A DNA stretch of 64,000 nt from an uncultured Bacteroidales bacterium (GCA_937949745.1 CALECM010000105.1:42877-106876); one strand, 5' to 3'; shown: positions 4,914 through 10,987, counted from the first letter of the stretch. Notes: a model not told the origin generated them from the sequence alone. Numbers and translations are program-made.

Positions 4914-5007
4914 AAGGCCTTTTCCTGTTTTCAGAATTTTCTGAACCAATTCCAATATTACCCGATAAAAAAACTATTTTGGACAACTCCATCCGGAATA
5001 GTCATTG

Positions 5008-5015
5008 TATTTTTG
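5008..5015 (+). promoter_or_regulatory. Bacteroidota -7 box (TAnnTTTG)
   Basis: TATTTTTG, only 7 nt upstream of ATG 5023. Implies a leaderless or near-leaderless mRNA. Confidence 0.45.
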
Positions 5016-5022
5016 TAGTACA

Positions 5023-6174
5023 ATGAATTATGAAATCTATAACAGCGATTATTGCCAGAGTTGCGGTATGCCTCTCCGGTTCGATGTGGAAGAATACCTG
5101 GGAACCAATGCAGATCATACCCCGAGCCATGAATATTGCTACTATTGCCTGAAAGACGGGAAATACGTAGTGGATATTCCCATGGAAGAAATGGTTGATA
5201 TTTGGGTGAAATATACCGGCAAGTATAATGAATATGCCGGGACTAAATATACCCCGTCGGAATTACGGACTTTATTGAATAAAAGACTCCCCACTTTAAA
5301 ACGCTGGAAGCAAAAGCTCACTACGCGTAATGTTCATCAGGAAGCGGTAAGAAAGATCAAAAATTATATCAGTCAAAACCTTTTCTCCCCGATCAATCCT
5401 CTCCATTTGTGCGAAACCGCACATCTTTCCCTTTATCATTTCCGTAAAATCTTCAAGGATATTACCGGAGAAAATATCGGAAGTTATATCCAGCGGCTGC
5501 GGCTGGAATATGTGGCTCATCATCTTTTATTCACTTCCCTGTCAATAATTGATATCCTGAAACAGACCAATTACCAGACAAAACACAGTCTATCCAAAGC
5601 TTTCAAAAATCATTTCGGTCTTTCCATGACGGATTACCGGAAACGTTATCAATATTATTCAAAAACAAACGAGCCATGGTCTTACCTCCCTCTGACTATT
5701 CCTCAGGTAAGGCGTTTGCCTGCCTTCAGGGCGCTTTGTTATCCGGTAGAAAATGCCTATCTCAATAAAGACCACTACCGGGCAGTGTGGCACAAAATCG
5801 TCCGTTACCGGGAAAAATACGGAAACCACGACGAAAAACCACAATATATAAGTATCAGTATGGATAATCCGCTGATCACCCCACCGGAAAAATGCCGCTT
5901 TTATTTAGGGACTTTAACAGAAGGAGAATCCGGAGTTAAAGGCGGATTCAGTGAAATAGAAATTCCGGGAGGATTATTTGCGGTTTTCAGGCACAGCGGA
6001 AACTATTCTTTCCTGCCTGAATTGTACCGGTATATCCATCAGCAGTGGCTTCCCCAAAGTAATTATATGCGACGGTCACCCATGAGTTTCGAACATTACA
6101 TGAACAATCCGAAAAACACAGAACCGGCAGCATTACTTACGGAGATATATATTCCCGTTGATAAAAAATACTAA
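5023..6174 (+). CDS. AraC-family regulator with N-terminal zinc-ribbon module and C-terminal GyrI-like effector domain
   Basis: ORF 5005..6174; Met at 5023 preferred because the -7 box overlaps the earlier start. CQSCGMPL...EYCYYCLKDGKY zinc ribbon. AraC HTH (LSLYHFRKIFKDITGENIGSYIQRLRLEYVAHHL...KAFKNHFGLSMTDYRKR). GyrI-like tail (GGLFAVFRHSGNYSFLPELYRYIHQQWLP...TEIYIPV). Confidence 0.75.
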   Translation: MNYEIYNSDYCQSCGMPLRFDVEEYLGTNADHTPSHEYCYYCLKDGKYVVDIPMEEMVDIWVKYTGKYNEYAGTKYTPSELRTLLNKRLPTLKRWKQKLTTRNVHQEAVRKIKNYISQNLFSPINPLHLCETAHLSLYHFRKIFKDITGENIGSYIQRLRLEYVAHHLLFTSLSIIDILKQTNYQTKHSLSKAFKNHFGLSMTDYRKRYQYYSKTNEPWSYLPLTIPQVRRLPAFRALCYPVENAYLNKDHYRAVWHKIVRYREKYGNHDEKPQYISISMDNPLITPPEKCRFYLGTLTEGESGVKGGFSEIEIPGGLFAVFRHSGNYSFLPELYRYIHQQWLPQSNYMRRSPMSFEHYMNNPKNTEPAALLTEIYIPVDKKY

Positions 6175-6184
6175 AACCGAGATT

Positions 6185-7009
6185 ATGATAGAATTACCAG
6201 AAGCCCTGACATTAGCCAGGCAGTCAAACGAAATACTCGCCGGTAAAAAAGTCGTTCATGTCTTTAATGCCACCAAATTACACCGGTTTACTTTTTTTCA
6301 TGATGATCCGTTGGAATATGATACGCAACTCAGGGGAAAGACCATCGAATCGGCGAAAGGATACGGTATATTTGTCGATCTTGTTTTTACCGGAGGAACA
6401 ATATTAAGTATTGGCGACGGTACTAATATGAAATATGGAAATCCGGGCGATACAATCCCGGCTCATTATCAGTTACTGATTACTTTTGAAGATGAATCTT
6501 TTCTGGTATTCACGGTTGCTATGTACGGTTCCATCGGTGTATACCCCGACGGAATCATCGAAGAAAAATACCACACGTTGAGCGCCTCCGGTATCTCTCC
6601 GCTGAGCGGGAACTATACTGAAGAAATTTTTCGAAAACTCTTTACCGGAACCAAAAAAGATCTGTCGGCCAAAGCATTGCTCGCCACCGAACAGCGTATC
6701 CCCGGTGTCGGGAACGGCGTATTGCAGGATATTCTGTTCAATGCCCGGATCCATCCTAAACGGAAAATATCCACTTTTTCCGAAAAGGACAGATCGGTGC
6801 TTTTCCGTTCTTTAAAAACTACCTTACAGGAAATGACCGATCTAAACGGACGGGATACCCAGAAAGATCTCTTAGGTAATAACGGGGTTTATAAAACTAT
6901 TTTATCCGCCAAAACCTGGAAAAATCCCTGCCCTGTTTGCGGAGGCGAAATCGTGAAAGAAAATTTCCTTGGCGGGACCATTTATTACTGTCCGGCCTGC
7001 CAGTTATAA
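6185..7009 (+). CDS. Fpg/Nei-family DNA glycosylase-like protein (H2TH plus C-terminal zinc finger), N-terminus MIELPEA
   Basis: ORF 6158..7009; Met at 6185 gives MIELPEA, aligned to the canonical MPELPEV. H2TH-like EQRIPGVGNGVLQDILFNARIHPKRK. Zinc finger CPVCGG...YYCPACQ. Confidence 0.65.
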   Translation: MIELPEALTLARQSNEILAGKKVVHVFNATKLHRFTFFHDDPLEYDTQLRGKTIESAKGYGIFVDLVFTGGTILSIGDGTNMKYGNPGDTIPAHYQLLITFEDESFLVFTVAMYGSIGVYPDGIIEEKYHTLSASGISPLSGNYTEEIFRKLFTGTKKDLSAKALLATEQRIPGVGNGVLQDILFNARIHPKRKISTFSEKDRSVLFRSLKTTLQEMTDLNGRDTQKDLLGNNGVYKTILSAKTWKNPCPVCGGEIVKENFLGGTIYYCPACQL

Positions 7010-7035
7010 ACTTATCCTTATCATAAAAACAAAAT

Positions 7036-7506
7036 ATGGCAAAATTAACAGATATTATGTTATTACAACAGCCGGCACAGCCGGCCCTTATTCTTGAAAA
7101 GCGTGGGAGTATCAACAATTTCAGCCGACTGATCGGCGAAGGCTTTCAGAGGATAGGCTCTTATATGGAAGAACTCGGAGAACTTCCGACGGATATTCCC
7201 AGTGTGGAGTACCCGGCTTACGAGGAAATGACTGATGATAATATCGGATTGATCATAACATTTTACACTCTCCGATCTCTTCCGGGAAAAGGCGACATCC
7301 GGTCCGTAACCATTCCAGCAAGGAAGATGATCGCCTGTCTTCATCAGGGCAGTTACGACGCTTTGGCTCACCTATACCGGGAAATGGCCGAATGGATCCG
7401 GCAAAAGGGATATGAACCTACCGGCACCAGTATCGAACACTATTACACCGGTCCGGAAACCCCCGAAGCGGAACAGATCACCCGTATCGTAATGCCGCTA
7501 AAATAG
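7036..7506 (+). CDS. GyrI-like small-molecule-binding domain protein
   Basis: 156 aa. The pattern ..ACLHQGSYDALAHLYREMAEWIRQKGYEPTGTSIEHYYTGP...ITRIVMPL is typical of SbmC/GyrI-like effector-binding domains. Lies 26 nt after the Fpg-like gene. Confidence 0.6.
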   Translation: MAKLTDIMLLQQPAQPALILEKRGSINNFSRLIGEGFQRIGSYMEELGELPTDIPSVEYPAYEEMTDDNIGLIITFYTLRSLPGKGDIRSVTIPARKMIACLHQGSYDALAHLYREMAEWIRQKGYEPTGTSIEHYYTGPETPEAEQITRIVMPLK

Positions 7507-7569
7507 AAATTCCGTATCGGAAAACCATATCCGGGAAAAAAGAAATAAGCATTATTTTAAGGTGCTATT

Positions 7570-8505
7570 TTAAAATATGGTGAATTGATCGTTTCTCAGA
7601 CTTTTAACCGGGCGTTCTTTAATGATGTCATCTTCCGATACATGTCCTATGAGCAGTGGTGAAGCCGGATCATGTTTTCCCATATTGGATTTAGCGGTGA
7701 GATAATTTCCCTTGATAGCATAACAATAGACACATCCGTTGAGGCAACTTTCGTAAGTTCCGATATCGATGCTTTCAATGCAATTACAAATATCCCGTTG
7801 ATTCTTGTCTTTTTTCGCAGAAATATTATATCCGGTAATCCGCTCAATCAGTTTTTTATCCACGCACAAACCGCCCGGTATTCCGAGATGAGTTAAATCC
7901 ACTTTTATCGTACAGGTATCCAGTTCTATCGGATATTTATCAATGGTTGACTTAAAAGAAACAGCCATCTCCTCGATTTCATCTGTCTCTAACGGATTGA
8001 TATCCAGACGTACAACTGTAGACTTAATATGACGGTAATGGTCGATAAATCCCAGCATGCACTTTTCCGTATGGTCTTTCAAACCTTCCGCTATTTCTGC
8101 GAAGGCTTCCCGGTGAAAAACCACATCATACTTTTTGTTGGTCAGTATAGGGTCGTAGCGCCAGATCACTTTTTCCTTACCTATCTTGTCGGAAAGACAT
8201 TTAAATATCCCGATTCTTTCTTTCACTGAAGGCAGGTTATTTTCGATATCCCGTCCATAAGGATTTAACGTAAACTGGAAATAATAATGATAATCCCTTA
8301 ACATATCCAGCTTATCCAGTATCGGAACCGGATTTTTAGTCCAGAAAACAATACAATCCACAACATCAGGTTTCAGGCTGATTTTACTGATCATTTTAGG
8401 ATTGTAGGGATTAGGGACCAATACATACTGTTCTTTAATCCTGTTGAAAAACCACTTTGAATAAAAAGCCGGAATATCCGTCCTGCGGCTGGCACTGATT
8501 ATCAT
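7570..8505 (-). CDS. DUF1848 domain protein (uncharacterised, Cys-cluster)
   Basis: N-terminus MIISASRRTDIPAFYSKWFFNRI and C-terminal CNCIESIDIGTYESCLNGCVYCYA match my recollection of DUF1848. Confidence 0.7.
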   Translation of the reverse strand: MIISASRRTDIPAFYSKWFFNRIKEQYVLVPNPYNPKMISKISLKPDVVDCIVFWTKNPVPILDKLDMLRDYHYYFQFTLNPYGRDIENNLPSVKERIGIFKCLSDKIGKEKVIWRYDPILTNKKYDVVFHREAFAEIAEGLKDHTEKCMLGFIDHYRHIKSTVVRLDINPLETDEIEEMAVSFKSTIDKYPIELDTCTIKVDLTHLGIPGGLCVDKKLIERITGYNISAKKDKNQRDICNCIESIDIGTYESCLNGCVYCYAIKGNYLTAKSNMGKHDPASPLLIGHVSEDDIIKERPVKSLRNDQFTIF

Positions 8506-8744: not shown

Positions 8745-9170
8745 TTATTGTCCCGGAATATAATTAATCATCCAGTGGATACCAAATTTATCCGTAATCA
8801 TGGCATACAATTCCGCCCAAAACGTTTTTTGAAGCGGCATGGTTACATTTCCTTCTTCCGAGAGTTTTTCGAATAAATATTTTGCTTCCTCTTCACTTTC
8901 AGCATTCAGGGTAAGAGAAACATTATCTCCAAATGTTATCTTCCGGTTTACAGGCGAATCCGATCCCATTATATAGACTTTTTCGCTTACAGGCAAAAGT
9001 GTATGGAGGATTTTGTTCATATCGGCCGGAGGAATATTGGCTTTTTCCGCATCGGGTAAATCTTTATACCTGGATATGAATCTTCTTTTCACATTAAATA
9101 CGAATTCATAGAAAGTAAAGGCTTCTTCGCAATTACCATCAAAAATCAAATAGGGCTCTATATTTTTCAT
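8745..9170 (-). CDS. VOC-superfamily protein, PhnB/YjdN-like
   Basis: ORF 8745..9242; Met at 9170 (MKNIEPYLIFDGNCEEAFTFYEFVF) removes the overlap with the upstream gene. ...FWAELYAMITDKFGIHWMIN is typical of the PhnB-like family. Confidence 0.6.
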   Translation of the reverse strand: MKNIEPYLIFDGNCEEAFTFYEFVFNVKRRFISRYKDLPDAEKANIPPADMNKILHTLLPVSEKVYIMGSDSPVNRKITFGDNVSLTLNAESEEEAKYLFEKLSEEGNVTMPLQKTFWAELYAMITDKFGIHWMINYIPGQ

Positions 9171-9199
9171 TATTCCTCTTCCTTTTGTTATTAAACATA

Positions 9200-9604
9200 T
9201 TAAGACTGCATACCTTTCATATCCATAAAGAATATTTCCCACAGATGCGCATCGGGATCTTCGAAACGTATGCCGTACATTTCTGAAGGTTCGGTGAATT
9301 TATCGACAATTTTCCCTCCTGCTTTTTCTATTTTATCAGCCTGATTATTTACCTCTTCCTTGCTATCGGCTGATAAAGCCACAATTACTTTGGGTGATTC
9401 CTCCGCATTCCCAATGGGCTTCTTTGTAAATGATTGGAAAAACTCTGCAGCAAGTAACATGACTGATGCTTTATCATTTACTATCATCATGGTGGCCTTC
9501 TCGTCGGTAAAATCCCGGTTAAACTCAAATCCGATTTTGGTATAAAACTCTACCGAACGTGCAAGATTTTTAACCGGGAGATTAATAAATACTTCTCTGC
9601 TCAT
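9200..9604 (-). CDS. VOC-superfamily (glyoxalase/bleomycin-resistance fold) protein
   Basis: MSREVFINLPVKNLARSVEFYTKIGFEF...GIRFEDPDAHLWEI. Lies 29 nt upstream of the next VOC gene on the same strand. Confidence 0.65.
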   Translation of the reverse strand: MSREVFINLPVKNLARSVEFYTKIGFEFNRDFTDEKATMMIVNDKASVMLLAAEFFQSFTKKPIGNAEESPKVIVALSADSKEEVNNQADKIEKAGGKIVDKFTEPSEMYGIRFEDPDAHLWEIFFMDMKGMQS

Positions 9605-9798: not shown

Positions 9799-9940
9799 CC
9801 ATTGAAATATTTCACCTCACAAATAGGTGTACGGAAAAATAAATGTAGTTTTTAAAAGGTTATCAGGAAAATTATCGAACAGTGGCTTTCCGGATGAGAC
9901 AGCGACCGTATGTGATTCCGTAACGATTAAAATAAAATGT

Positions 9941-10987
9941 ATGGAAACTGAAAGAGAGATATTTTATAAGGCATTAATGGAAAGGGACAGTTCTTTTGAA
10001 GGAGTGTTTATAGTCGCAGTAAAAACGACCGGAATATTCTGTCGTCCCACCTGTCCGGCAAAGCCCAAACCGGAAAATATCGAGTTTTTCCGTTCAACAC
10101 AGGATGCTATGGAGAATGGTTACAGACCGTGCAAAATTTGCAAACCTTTGGAGAAACTAGGAAATCCTCCTGACGGTATCAAGCAGTTATTGAAGTATCT
10201 GGAAGAAAATCCTTCGATTAAAATTACGGATACCAAACTAAAGGAAATGGGACTTGAACCCAATCAGGTTCGCAGATGGTTTCTGAAAAACTATAAGCAA
10301 ACTTTCCATACCTACCAGAGAATGTATCGGGCTAATACTGCCTTTCAGCGGATACAATCCGAACAAAATATAACGAATGTAGCATACGATTCGGGGTACG
10401 ATTCCTTAAGCGGATTCGGAAATATGTTCAAAACCGTCATAGGATCTTCTCCGCAGAATAGTAAAAACAAACGTATTGTCAATGTTACCTATATCGAAAC
10501 AGACCTGGGATTGATGGTAGCAGCCGCGACCGAAAAAGGAATCTGTATGTTTGAGTTTTCAGATTACAAATTGATTGATTTAGAATTCCGGCAACTGAGT
10601 GAGGAGTTTAAAGCCCCGCTCGTTCAGGGTGAAAATCCTCACTTTGATACACTCAGGAAGCAGTTAGAGGAGTACTTTAATGGGGAACGGAAAAATTTTG
10701 ACATTCCATTGGATTTAGCCGGTACGAAATTTCAAAAAAAGGTATGGCTGTCTTTAGTGCAAATTCCTTATGGCTCGACAACCACCTACGCAAAACAAGC
10801 TGAACTTTTAGGCAAACCCACTGCCGTAAGGGCTGTGGCCAATGCCAATGGAAAAAATAAAATCTCCATAATCCTGCCTTGCCACAGGGTTATCGGTACT
10901 GACGGAACACTTACGGGTTATGGCGGTGGGATATGGAGAAAAAAGAAATTGTTGGAATTTGAGAAAGAAAATATGAGGACCATATAA
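9941..10987 (+). CDS. ada: bifunctional Ada: methylphosphotriester-DNA methyl acceptor, AraC HTH and O6-alkylguanine-DNA methyltransferase
   Basis: ORF 9827..10987 (GTG); ATG 9941 preferred. N-terminal Cys4 domain GIFCRPTCPAKP...YRPCKICKP. AraC HTH region. C-terminal active site ILPCHRVIG. Confidence 0.8.
   Translation: METEREIFYKALMERDSSFEGVFIVAVKTTGIFCRPTCPAKPKPENIEFFRSTQDAMENGYRPCKICKPLEKLGNPPDGIKQLLKYLEENPSIKITDTKLKEMGLEPNQVRRWFLKNYKQTFHTYQRMYRANTAFQRIQSEQNITNVAYDSGYDSLSGFGNMFKTVIGSSPQNSKNKRIVNVTYIETDLGLMVAAATEKGICMFEFSDYKLIDLEFRQLSEEFKAPLVQGENPHFDTLRKQLEEYFNGERKNFDIPLDLAGTKFQKKVWLSLVQIPYGSTTTYAKQAELLGKPTAVRAVANANGKNKISIILPCHRVIGTDGTLTGYGGGIWRKKKLLEFEKENMRTI

Follow-up and report, generated by a model that had tools for sequence, protein, structure and literature searches.

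The 64,000-nt stretch of DNA from an uncultured Bacteroidales bacterium analyzed here (GCA_937949745.1 CALECM010000105.1:42877-106876, referred to as the window) contains three closely spaced genes on the + strand that very probably form one transcription unit, controlled by the product of the first gene and carrying functionally linked cargo. The first gene (REG) encodes a regulator, the second (FPGL) a protein with the fold of the Fpg/Nei DNA glycosylases, and the third (GYRI) a stand-alone GyrI-like protein; the intergenic gaps are 10 nt (REG-FPGL) and 26 nt (FPGL-GYRI). An earlier reading made from the sequence alone (the sequence-only reading) had placed the three open reading frames at exactly these positions and spacings, and a Pfam profile search agreed with every domain that it had assigned to the three proteins. 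We give about an even chance to the view that the unit is an inducible defense in which REG would sense a xenobiotic, GYRI would sequester it, and FPGL would handle the consequences for DNA. If true, this would be a compact sense-sequester-repair operon and could explain the tolerance of Bacteroidales to DNA-targeting drugs or microbial genotoxins.

5023..6174, + strand: REG, a 383-aa Zn-ribbon/AraC/GyrI-like regulator
6185..7009, + strand: FPGL, a 274-aa non-canonical Fpg-fold protein
7036..7506, + strand: GYRI, a 156-aa stand-alone GyrI-like protein of the CTR107 type, a small-molecule binder as predicted from sequence and model

The arrangement is found much more frequently than would be expected by chance, and the expectation that the three genes would be found together in other genomes with very short gaps was borne out by locus comparisons. 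The comparisons covered 14 REG lineages, obtained by clustering at 85% identity, and 96 loci with an FPGL relative (16 from reference genomes and 80 from metagenomes), which correspond to about 49 clusters at 85% identity; the metagenome scan used a closer alignment (A2), the 80-member alignment (A1) having no stretch conserved enough. The order REG-FPGL-GYRI was found in 6 of the 14 REG lineages plus one variant, REG-FPGL was found in 5 of the 14, and the trio, or REG with one partner, was present in at least 12 REG lineages of Bacteroidales. With 362 homologs, the family of REG is a small one. All 120 of those listed have the identical three-domain architecture, and at least 33 of the best 120 share a contig with one of the best 120 FPGL homologs. 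Similarly, 25 of the 43 GYRI homologs on contigs of at least 3 kb share their contig with REG or FPGL hits. Direct look-ups found the trio in unrelated samples, with a near-identical contig in one public metagenome.

It could be argued that the genes are accessory ones that happen to move as a group within stress islands of Bacteroidales and have no regulation or function in common. Each of FPGL and GYRI is also found by itself elsewhere, GYRI among GNAT, MBL and YjbR genes, and REG and GYRI have been gained and lost among FPGL genes that are more than 85% identical; within one species-level group, GYRI is present in one locus (L025, 5858-6328) and missing from the near-identical loci L017-L023 and L026 (human gut). 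Such incidental adjacency is nevertheless highly improbable, since the gene order is constant across lineages that share just 50-65% protein identity, the gaps in the conserved loci are 5-22 nt (with a 4-nt overlap in one lineage), and a single conserved promoter/operator stands ahead of the first gene only.

This promoter/operator lies within the approximately 50 nt before the REG start codon, which remain conserved among lineages with unrelated sequence farther upstream. The elements assigned in the window, together with a palindrome beyond the last gene, are as follows.

4973..5002, + strand: imperfect inverted repeat ACTATTTTGGA-N8-TCCGGAATAGT, which contains the 14-nt box; putative REG operator
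4974-4987, + strand: 14-nt box CTATTTTGGACAAC, 20 nt upstream of the -7 box
5008-5015, + strand: -7 promoter box of the Bacteroidetes type, TATTTTTG, 7 nt before the ATG of REG
7510..7522, no strand assigned: short palindrome TTCCGTATCGGAA between the convergent GYRI and DUF1848 genes; consensus match only

The consensus of the conserved region is GCCTATTTyGGAyAAC, followed by 5-6 variable bases, a partly palindromic rATAGGC, ATTG-TAnnTTTG, and an ATG 3-8 nt later. The TAnnTTTG motif occurs 70 times in the AT-rich window, compared with 58.6 occurrences expected, which is not significant by itself, and the promoter call therefore rests on conservation: the TATTTTTG copy holds its position 3-8 nt before the REG ATG in the related loci, and its TA-T-TTT positions are invariant in an alignment of nine loci (A3). 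Judging from the placement of the -7 box, which positions the transcription start site, the REG mRNA is probably leaderless or nearly so. A sigma-70 promoter scan returned 6 sites versus 6.0 expected and is uninformative for Bacteroidetes.

The pattern derived from the 14-nt box, CTAT[AT]T[TCA]GGA[CT]AA[CT], occurs a single time in the window (4974-4987), and tolerating 2 mismatches adds just two more sites, one of them within a MATE gene. In the loci that carry REG, the pattern was found once per locus (except in L080 and L107) and always upstream of the first gene of the operon, whereas it did not occur in FPGL loci without REG. A box that nearly every REG locus has a single time, before its first gene, and that REG-less FPGL loci do not have, points to one autoregulated transcription unit. 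Neither FPGL nor GYRI has a -7 box immediately before it on the + strand, and the intervals between the operon genes contain no terminator; the palindrome TTCCGTATCGGAA could possibly act as a bidirectional terminator closing the operon. The element upstream of REG is a probable REG-specific operator at a single autoregulated promoter, to which we infer that REG binds, and the arms of the inverted repeat form a perfect 12/12 palindrome in one related locus (L002). Three points count against this reading: L107 and L080 carry the box in no exact form, some lineages show little conservation of the right arm of the inverted repeat, leaving the operator architecture uncertain, and proteins of the AraC/MarA type are usually monomers on asymmetric sites. 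As a guess, the zinc ribbon of REG might serve dimerization on the palindromic operator. The conserved box offers a direct route to reporter assays for the inducing ligand. Base composition was uninformative as a sign of horizontal transfer, the GC content of the operon (0.41-0.47) being inside the local range (0.34-0.48).

The treatment of the trio as a unit in the sequence-only reading holds insofar as the three genes recur together behind a single promoter/operator, but the unit is not fixed, because most FPGL genes have different neighbors and REG also drives other cargo. The module is thus real but modular, with REG and its operator constant and with FPGL and GYRI as preferred, separately dispensable cargo. 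Among the approximately 49 FPGL clusters, REG was directly upstream of FPGL in 6 and GYRI directly downstream in 4, and these were its most recurrent operon partners. The other partners were mixed and included an MBL-fold hydrolase, GNAT acetyltransferases, a glyoxalase, AhpC, DUF2461, DUF4180, a Na/H exchanger and a TIM barrel of the sugar-phosphate-isomerase type, among others. REG and GYRI come and go even between FPGL genes more than 85% identical, and approximately 43 of the 49 sampled FPGL lineages have neither gene beside them and have unrelated neighbors instead; FPGL therefore does not depend on the module, a point against the preferred mechanism.

Of the REG lineages outside the two commonest arrangements, one has the order DUF3788-REG-GYRI and comprises abundant gut Bacteroides, including B. 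congonensis; for REG-FPGL, Parabacteroides sp. PFB2-12 and Proteiniphilum are candidate cultured carriers. The other two have REG followed by a radical-SAM gene and REG followed by GrpB and then a gene of the chloramphenicol acetyltransferase (CAT) family. In gut Bacteroides (L097-L100 and L104-L106), the DUF3788 gene overlaps the start of REG by 4 nt, the box lies upstream, and there is no FPGL; the REG cluster with this order has 4,358 member sequences, which may make it the most frequent arrangement in human guts. In Dysgonomonas capnocytophagoides (SOML01000005.1; L101, 4001-5971), the REG homolog and its box are followed after 13 nt by a gene for a 273-aa radical-SAM protein, without FPGL, and RteC-like and integrase genes a few kilobases downstream suggest a mobile-element context. 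The GrpB and CAT-family genes follow the REG homolog of a Tannerella sp. metagenome bin (L107, 4001-6504). In Parabacteroides sp. Marseille-P3160 (L016, 6001-6231), the FPGL homolog is reduced to its C-terminal 77 residues and is an apparent remnant. A link between FPGL and nearby stand-alone Zn_ribbon_2/DUF3795 genes (L065, L068 and L075-79) was considered and rejected, the intervening genes encoding an M48 peptidase and an alpha/beta hydrolase.

The regulator that would control the unit has three recognizable domains.

5050-5310, + strand: Zn_ribbon_2 (aa 10-96), Pfam 84.8 bits, with Cys11/14/39/42
5407-5646, + strand: AraC-type HTH_18 (aa 129-208), Pfam 62.6 bits
5701-6159, + strand: GyrI-like putative ligand-binding domain (aa 227-379), Pfam 114.4 bits, with an F-E-H-Y motif

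In REG a double-helix-turn-helix (HTH) AraC domain is followed by a GyrI-like domain, which is the Rob/YgiV architecture, and the combination of HTH_18 and GyrI-like domains is common to REG, STM3175/YgiV and Rob. The closest solved structure to REG in a phmmer search was 7R3W (STM3175/YgiV; E 2.4e-25 over residues 105-379), followed by Rob (1D5Y; E 5e-13). The GyrI-like domain of STM3175 binds the gyrase poison albicidin, and autoregulation of STM3175 has been proposed (PMC10414762). REG differs from YgiV and Rob in its extra, highly conserved N-terminal Zn_ribbon_2 (Cys4), in its use of a Bacteroidetes promoter with its own 14-nt box, and in its downstream cargo, an Fpg-like gene and/or a free GyrI-like gene; its strand motif is E-x-Y, whereas most YgiV homologs have F-x-Y. 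The Zn-ribbon is the most conserved part of the protein, at 81% identity compared with 43% for the GyrI-like domain when REG is compared with its homolog in L002. Plasmid relatives in PLSDB were only generic AraC-GyrI proteins at 25-29% identity, without any Zn-ribbon homolog.

The sequence-only reading had proposed an inducible sensing module, and a module of this kind with co-expressed cargo is well founded, given a ligand-binding regulator of the Rob/YgiV type and a single conserved promoter/operator. In the mechanism envisaged here, a single promoter just upstream of REG would drive REG, FPGL and GYRI, and REG, as a Rob/YgiV-type activator with an extra zinc ribbon, would bind the box CTATTTTGGACAAC. 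A xenobiotic bound by the GyrI-like domain of REG would alter its activity; the ligand would probably be a planar aromatic compound and might be cationic, given that the Glu in the pocket of BmrR-type binders is retained. Induction would raise the level of REG itself through autoregulation, together with that of the two cargo proteins, of which the CTR107-like GYRI would sequester the compound and FPGL, a derived Fpg paralog, would act on DNA damage or on the DNA-bound form of the compound. The REG lineage with GrpB and CAT-family cargo fits a xenobiotic sensor. The ligand domain of REG and GYRI are 32% identical over their C-terminal halves, including S[F/I]EHY, a resemblance that would be compatible with related ligands.

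GYRI consists of a single GyrI-like domain (Pfam 72.5 bits). A phmmer search against the PDB matched it to 9RTM (E 1.6e-10), CTR107 (3E0H; E 1.8e-5) and EcmrR. Its AlphaFold2 model (pLDDT 92.1) was closest in Foldseek to CTR107 and to an engineered rhodamine-binding derivative of it (Rho-tag), with TM 0.84-0.85 and rmsd 1.9-2.2 A, and the next matches were the STM3175 ligand domain, the EcmrR C-domain and the closthioamide binder CtaZ. GYRI has the single GyrI-like domain of approximately 155 aa, the pocket Glu and the structural closeness to CTR107 that characterize CTR107-type proteins. Like the stand-alone binders CTR107, SAV2435 and CtaZ, it keeps the pocket Glu on the last strands (Glu134, window positions 7435-7437), and it superposes on CTR107-rhodamine complexes, but it is just 21-25% identical to binders of this type, is encoded beside its own sensor, and has a second invariant Glu (Glu116, 7381-7383) in a long helix. 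The residues invariant in the GYRI family are Glu116, Glu134, Tyr136 and Tyr137. At the position equivalent to Glu116, CTR107 has Ala, EcmrR has Tyr, and the REG ligand domain also lacks Glu; a catalytic role for Glu116 is possible.

The sequence-only reading had suggested that the free GyrI-like protein could be a hydrolase of cyclopropanoid compounds, which did not hold up. The known hydrolases of this kind, YtkR7 and lin2189, are characterized by the acidic pair Glu157/Glu185 together with an aromatic cage of which Trp85 and Trp99 are part (PMC5684135). Glu134-x-Tyr136 of GYRI matches the hydrolase motif Glu185-x-Tyr187, and Glu116 is at most a candidate counterpart of Glu157. GYRI has a single Trp (Trp120, in a helix), so the two-Trp hydrolase cage cannot be present, and it is approximately 40-50 residues shorter than lin2189 (197-205 aa). 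As a candidate cyclopropanoid hydrolase, GYRI was rejected: CTR107 is its closest structural match (TM 0.85), whereas lin2189 ranked 24-29 in Foldseek with 11% identity and an rmsd of 4-5 A, and a phmmer search with GYRI did not find lin2189 at E<=1. With GYRI closest to the dye-binding CTR107 and not to the hydrolases, sequestration would be likelier than hydrolysis and is the better-supported reading on the modeled structure.

A related proposal is that the operon confers self-resistance as part of a natural-product biosynthetic cluster, in the manner of ytkR2/ytkR7 in producers of yatakemycin. YtkR2 is an AlkD-like glycosylase, whereas the glycosylase candidate encoded here has an Fpg fold. 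The parallel is conceptual, a GyrI-like protein combined with a DNA glycosylase against one genotoxin (PMC5684135). We consider this origin extremely improbable, since neither the window nor any of the related loci examined has biosynthetic genes next to the operon, and GYRI lies outside the hydrolase subfamily.

The remaining protein, FPGL, has the Fpg/Nei fold, in which an N-terminal beta-sandwich is followed by the H2TH domain and a zinc finger.

6185-6511, + strand: N-terminal domain, beginning MIELPE; Fapy_DNA_glyco 24.4 bits, just under the cut-off of 25.5
6593-6853, + strand: H2TH domain; PF06831 37.8 bits versus a cut-off of 34.7
6926-7003, + strand: Cys4 zinc finger, C249-x2-C252...C269-x2-C272; zf-FPG_IleRS 21.4 bits versus a cut-off of 21.3

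The expected match of the middle protein to Fpg/Nei profiles was thus obtained in part, with the H2TH domain and the zinc finger reaching their cut-offs and the Fapy_DNA_glyco and fpg scores falling below theirs. FPGL aligns end to end with the NCBIfam fpg model TIGR00577 at 88.4 bits, far below the cut-off of 203.3, so the label "non-canonical" given to it in the sequence-only reading is accurate. The AlphaFold2 model (pLDDT 97.5) matched MutM/Fpg structures in Foldseek with TM 0.81-0.83 (MutM 0.83) at 21-24% identity, and a profile of the FPGL family matched Lactococcus lactis Fpg with E 3e-45. An exhaustive search of 1.84 billion cluster representatives (50% identity clusters) returned 149 FPGL-like proteins at E<1e-30. 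None of the 98 full-length FPGL-like proteins starts with Met-Pro; all begin M-[I/L/M/Y/V/F]-E-[L/I]-P-E. These comparisons place FPGL in a large, uncharacterized Fpg clade. This clade could not be equated with the BaFpg2 clade of the nine-clade Fpg/Nei scheme of 2011, which has a narrow distribution that includes actinomycetes and a length of 288 aa. It may already be catalogued though unstudied: the NCBI Conserved Domain Database presumably holds several "uncharacterised bacterial FpgNei_N subgroups", one of which may mention replacement of the N-terminal Pro.

An N-terminal amine that acts as the nucleophile is the defining feature of the Fpg/Nei mechanism. Residue states in FPGL were assessed in 80 diverse members of the clade (30-50% identity) mapped onto L. 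lactis Fpg, with the following results.

Glu3, the catalytic Glu (Glu2 of the mature enzyme): 80/80
Glu6, at the start of helix A: 78/80
Lys57 position: variable, Ile62 in the window protein
Met75 position: in a gap in 51/80
Arg109 position: Gln, Lys or Ala, with Ala112 in the window protein
Phe111 position: Tyr or Trp, the only residue of the void-filling triad that is kept (aromatic wedge)
Lys163: 78/80
Asn177, the phosphate-binding Asn of the H2TH domain: 75/80
Asp182: 69/80
Zinc-finger Cys residues C249, C252, C269 and C272: 79-80/80
Zinc-finger Arg (E. coli R258, L. lactis R260), which contacts the lesion phosphate: aligns to Gly264, with Gly in 75/80

FPGL therefore has, in common with bacterial Fpg/MutM, the three-part fold, Glu3, Glu6, the H2TH Asn, the Lys-Asp pair and the Cys4 finger, but it lacks the N-terminal Pro, has Gly in place of the zinc-finger Arg, and does not conserve the equivalents of Lys57, Met75 and Arg109. 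At the Pro nucleophile position, none of the 80 members has Pro; the residues are mainly Ile (43), Leu (22), Met (4), Tyr (4) and Val (3), with Ile2 in the window protein. In 61 of the 85 distinct homologous open reading frames, no earlier start is available between an in-frame stop and the M-x-E ATG, which secures the start codon and with it the absence of Pro2. Methionine aminopeptidase cleaves off Met only when the next residue is Gly, Ala, Ser, Thr, Cys, Pro or Val. With residue 2 mostly Ile, Leu or Met, most members should keep Met1, so that the canonical N-terminal amine would be absent from them. Signatures specific to the clade are Gly-Gly-Arg223-Asp, Tyr236 and Lys258, and its near-invariant residues include Arg223, Tyr236 and Gln273. 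For the lesion-capping loop of L. lactis Fpg, MAFFT and HMMER gave conflicting placements, and no claim is made for this loop.

The losses listed above, from the nucleophile and the zinc-finger Arg to the other contact residues, weigh against a DNA repair role of the canonical kind: the missing nucleophile and Arg argue against canonical chemistry, and FPGL may not be a glycosylase at all. The conservation of Glu3, Glu6, Lys163, Asn177, Asp182 and the four Cys residues, on the other hand, argues for a retained DNA-directed function, and the invariant Glu3 argues for a working active site. FPGL would represent either a new catalytic solution or a DNA-binding pseudo-enzyme, and its clade would be an Fpg fold without Pro that has either found such a solution or become a widespread pseudo-enzyme.

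NEIL3 of metazoans is likewise a member of the Fpg/Nei family without an N-terminal Pro, and by analogy it sets a precedent for a changed chemistry in this fold. Part of the void-filling triad is missing from it as well, and its substrates are single-stranded DNA and interstrand crosslinks. The two proteins differ in that NEIL3 exposes Val2 after removal of Met, whereas residue 2 of FPGL should prevent that removal, and their sequence relationship is distant, the profile match being restricted to the H2TH region (E ~1e-10).

If FPGL were a catalytically dead DNA binder, it could serve as a reader of lesions or intercalators, as a DNA shield or as a partner of the regulator. The family-wide loss of the nucleophile and of the phosphate-binding zinc-finger Arg would suit such a role, as would the non-catalytic H2TH domains of topo VI-B and ribosomal protein uS13, both of which are weak matches to the FPGL profile. 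Since Glu3 is invariant and Glu6 nearly so at 30-50% identity, and since the near-invariant Arg223, Tyr236 and Gln273 resemble an active site and not a decayed one, we regard a dead FPGL as unlikely.

The same residues bear on whether the operon belongs to a general stress regulon of the mar/sox/rob kind, in which REG would sense redox-cycling or membrane-active xenobiotics, FPGL would repair ordinary oxidized bases, namely 8-oxoguanine (8-oxoG) and formamidopyrimidine (Fapy) lesions, that arise as a secondary effect, and GYRI would be a generic drug sponge. REG is homologous to Rob and MarA, and in a single lineage, L048, FPGL adjoins an AhpC-family gene. Endonuclease IV belongs to the SoxS/MarA/Rob regulon of E. 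coli, which also speaks for this possibility. Moreover, FPGL keeps Asn177 and the Lys163-Asp182 pair, a state described for the Fpg branch and not for the Nei branch (PMC3188539). However, the residues for 8-oxoG excision (Pro1, Lys57, Met75, Arg109 and Arg260) are absent or unconserved, and a score of 88 bits falls well short of the 203-bit cut-off of TIGR00577; a general stress regulon appears rather unlikely.

Within the preferred reading of the operon as an inducible defense, the specific idea that FPGL excises the adduct formed by the inducer is tentative and somewhat doubtful. A bolder version, which we think quite unlikely, would make FPGL a tenth Fpg/Nei clade with a distinct function, relying on some nucleophile besides an N-terminal Pro or Val, or else working as a monofunctional glycosylase via Glu3. 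It would act on adducts that a particular genotoxin of the environment or the gut forms by crosslinking, by intercalation or as bulky lesions, and it would be induced by direct sensing of that genotoxin through the GyrI-like regulator. If true, this would be a toxin-specific, inducible base-excision defense in non-producers, with a paralogous GyrI-like protein mopping up free compound. The sequence-only reading was not aware of a described pairing of Fpg/Nei and GyrI-like proteins, in agreement with which the searchable literature contained no paper combining Fpg, glycosylase and GyrI-like, and nothing was found there on this regulator type, this Fpg clade or the pairing.

The operon is located in the first 12.5 kb of the window, which reads as a genotoxin/xenobiotic island and gives circumstantial support to a DNA-damage theme.

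1442-2788: MATE pump
7570-8505, - strand: DUF1848 protein with a radical-SAM-like Cys cluster (346.9 bits), convergent to the operon
8745-9604, - strand: two VOC/glyoxalase proteins, one with a bleomycin-resistance-like N-terminus
9827-10987: Ada-type protein with an Ada zinc domain, an AraC HTH and an O6-methylguanine methyltransferase domain
In the same cluster, which extends to 12474: FMN reductase and AraC-DUF6597 regulator

A MATE gene is also found within 3 kb of FPGL in four other loci. No Rfam families or tRNAs were found in the 64-kb window. Membership of REG, FPGL and GYRI in an anti-phage defense system was considered and set aside, none of the three having any PADLOC match. The DUF1848 protein of the window matches the PADLOC model "RTasDUF1848" (defense reverse-transcriptase-associated) with E 7e-46. 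In another locus (L095, 5886-6944), a DUF1848 gene follows FPGL by 40 nt on the same strand; the association between FPGL and DUF1848 was seen in two lineages only and may be due to chance.

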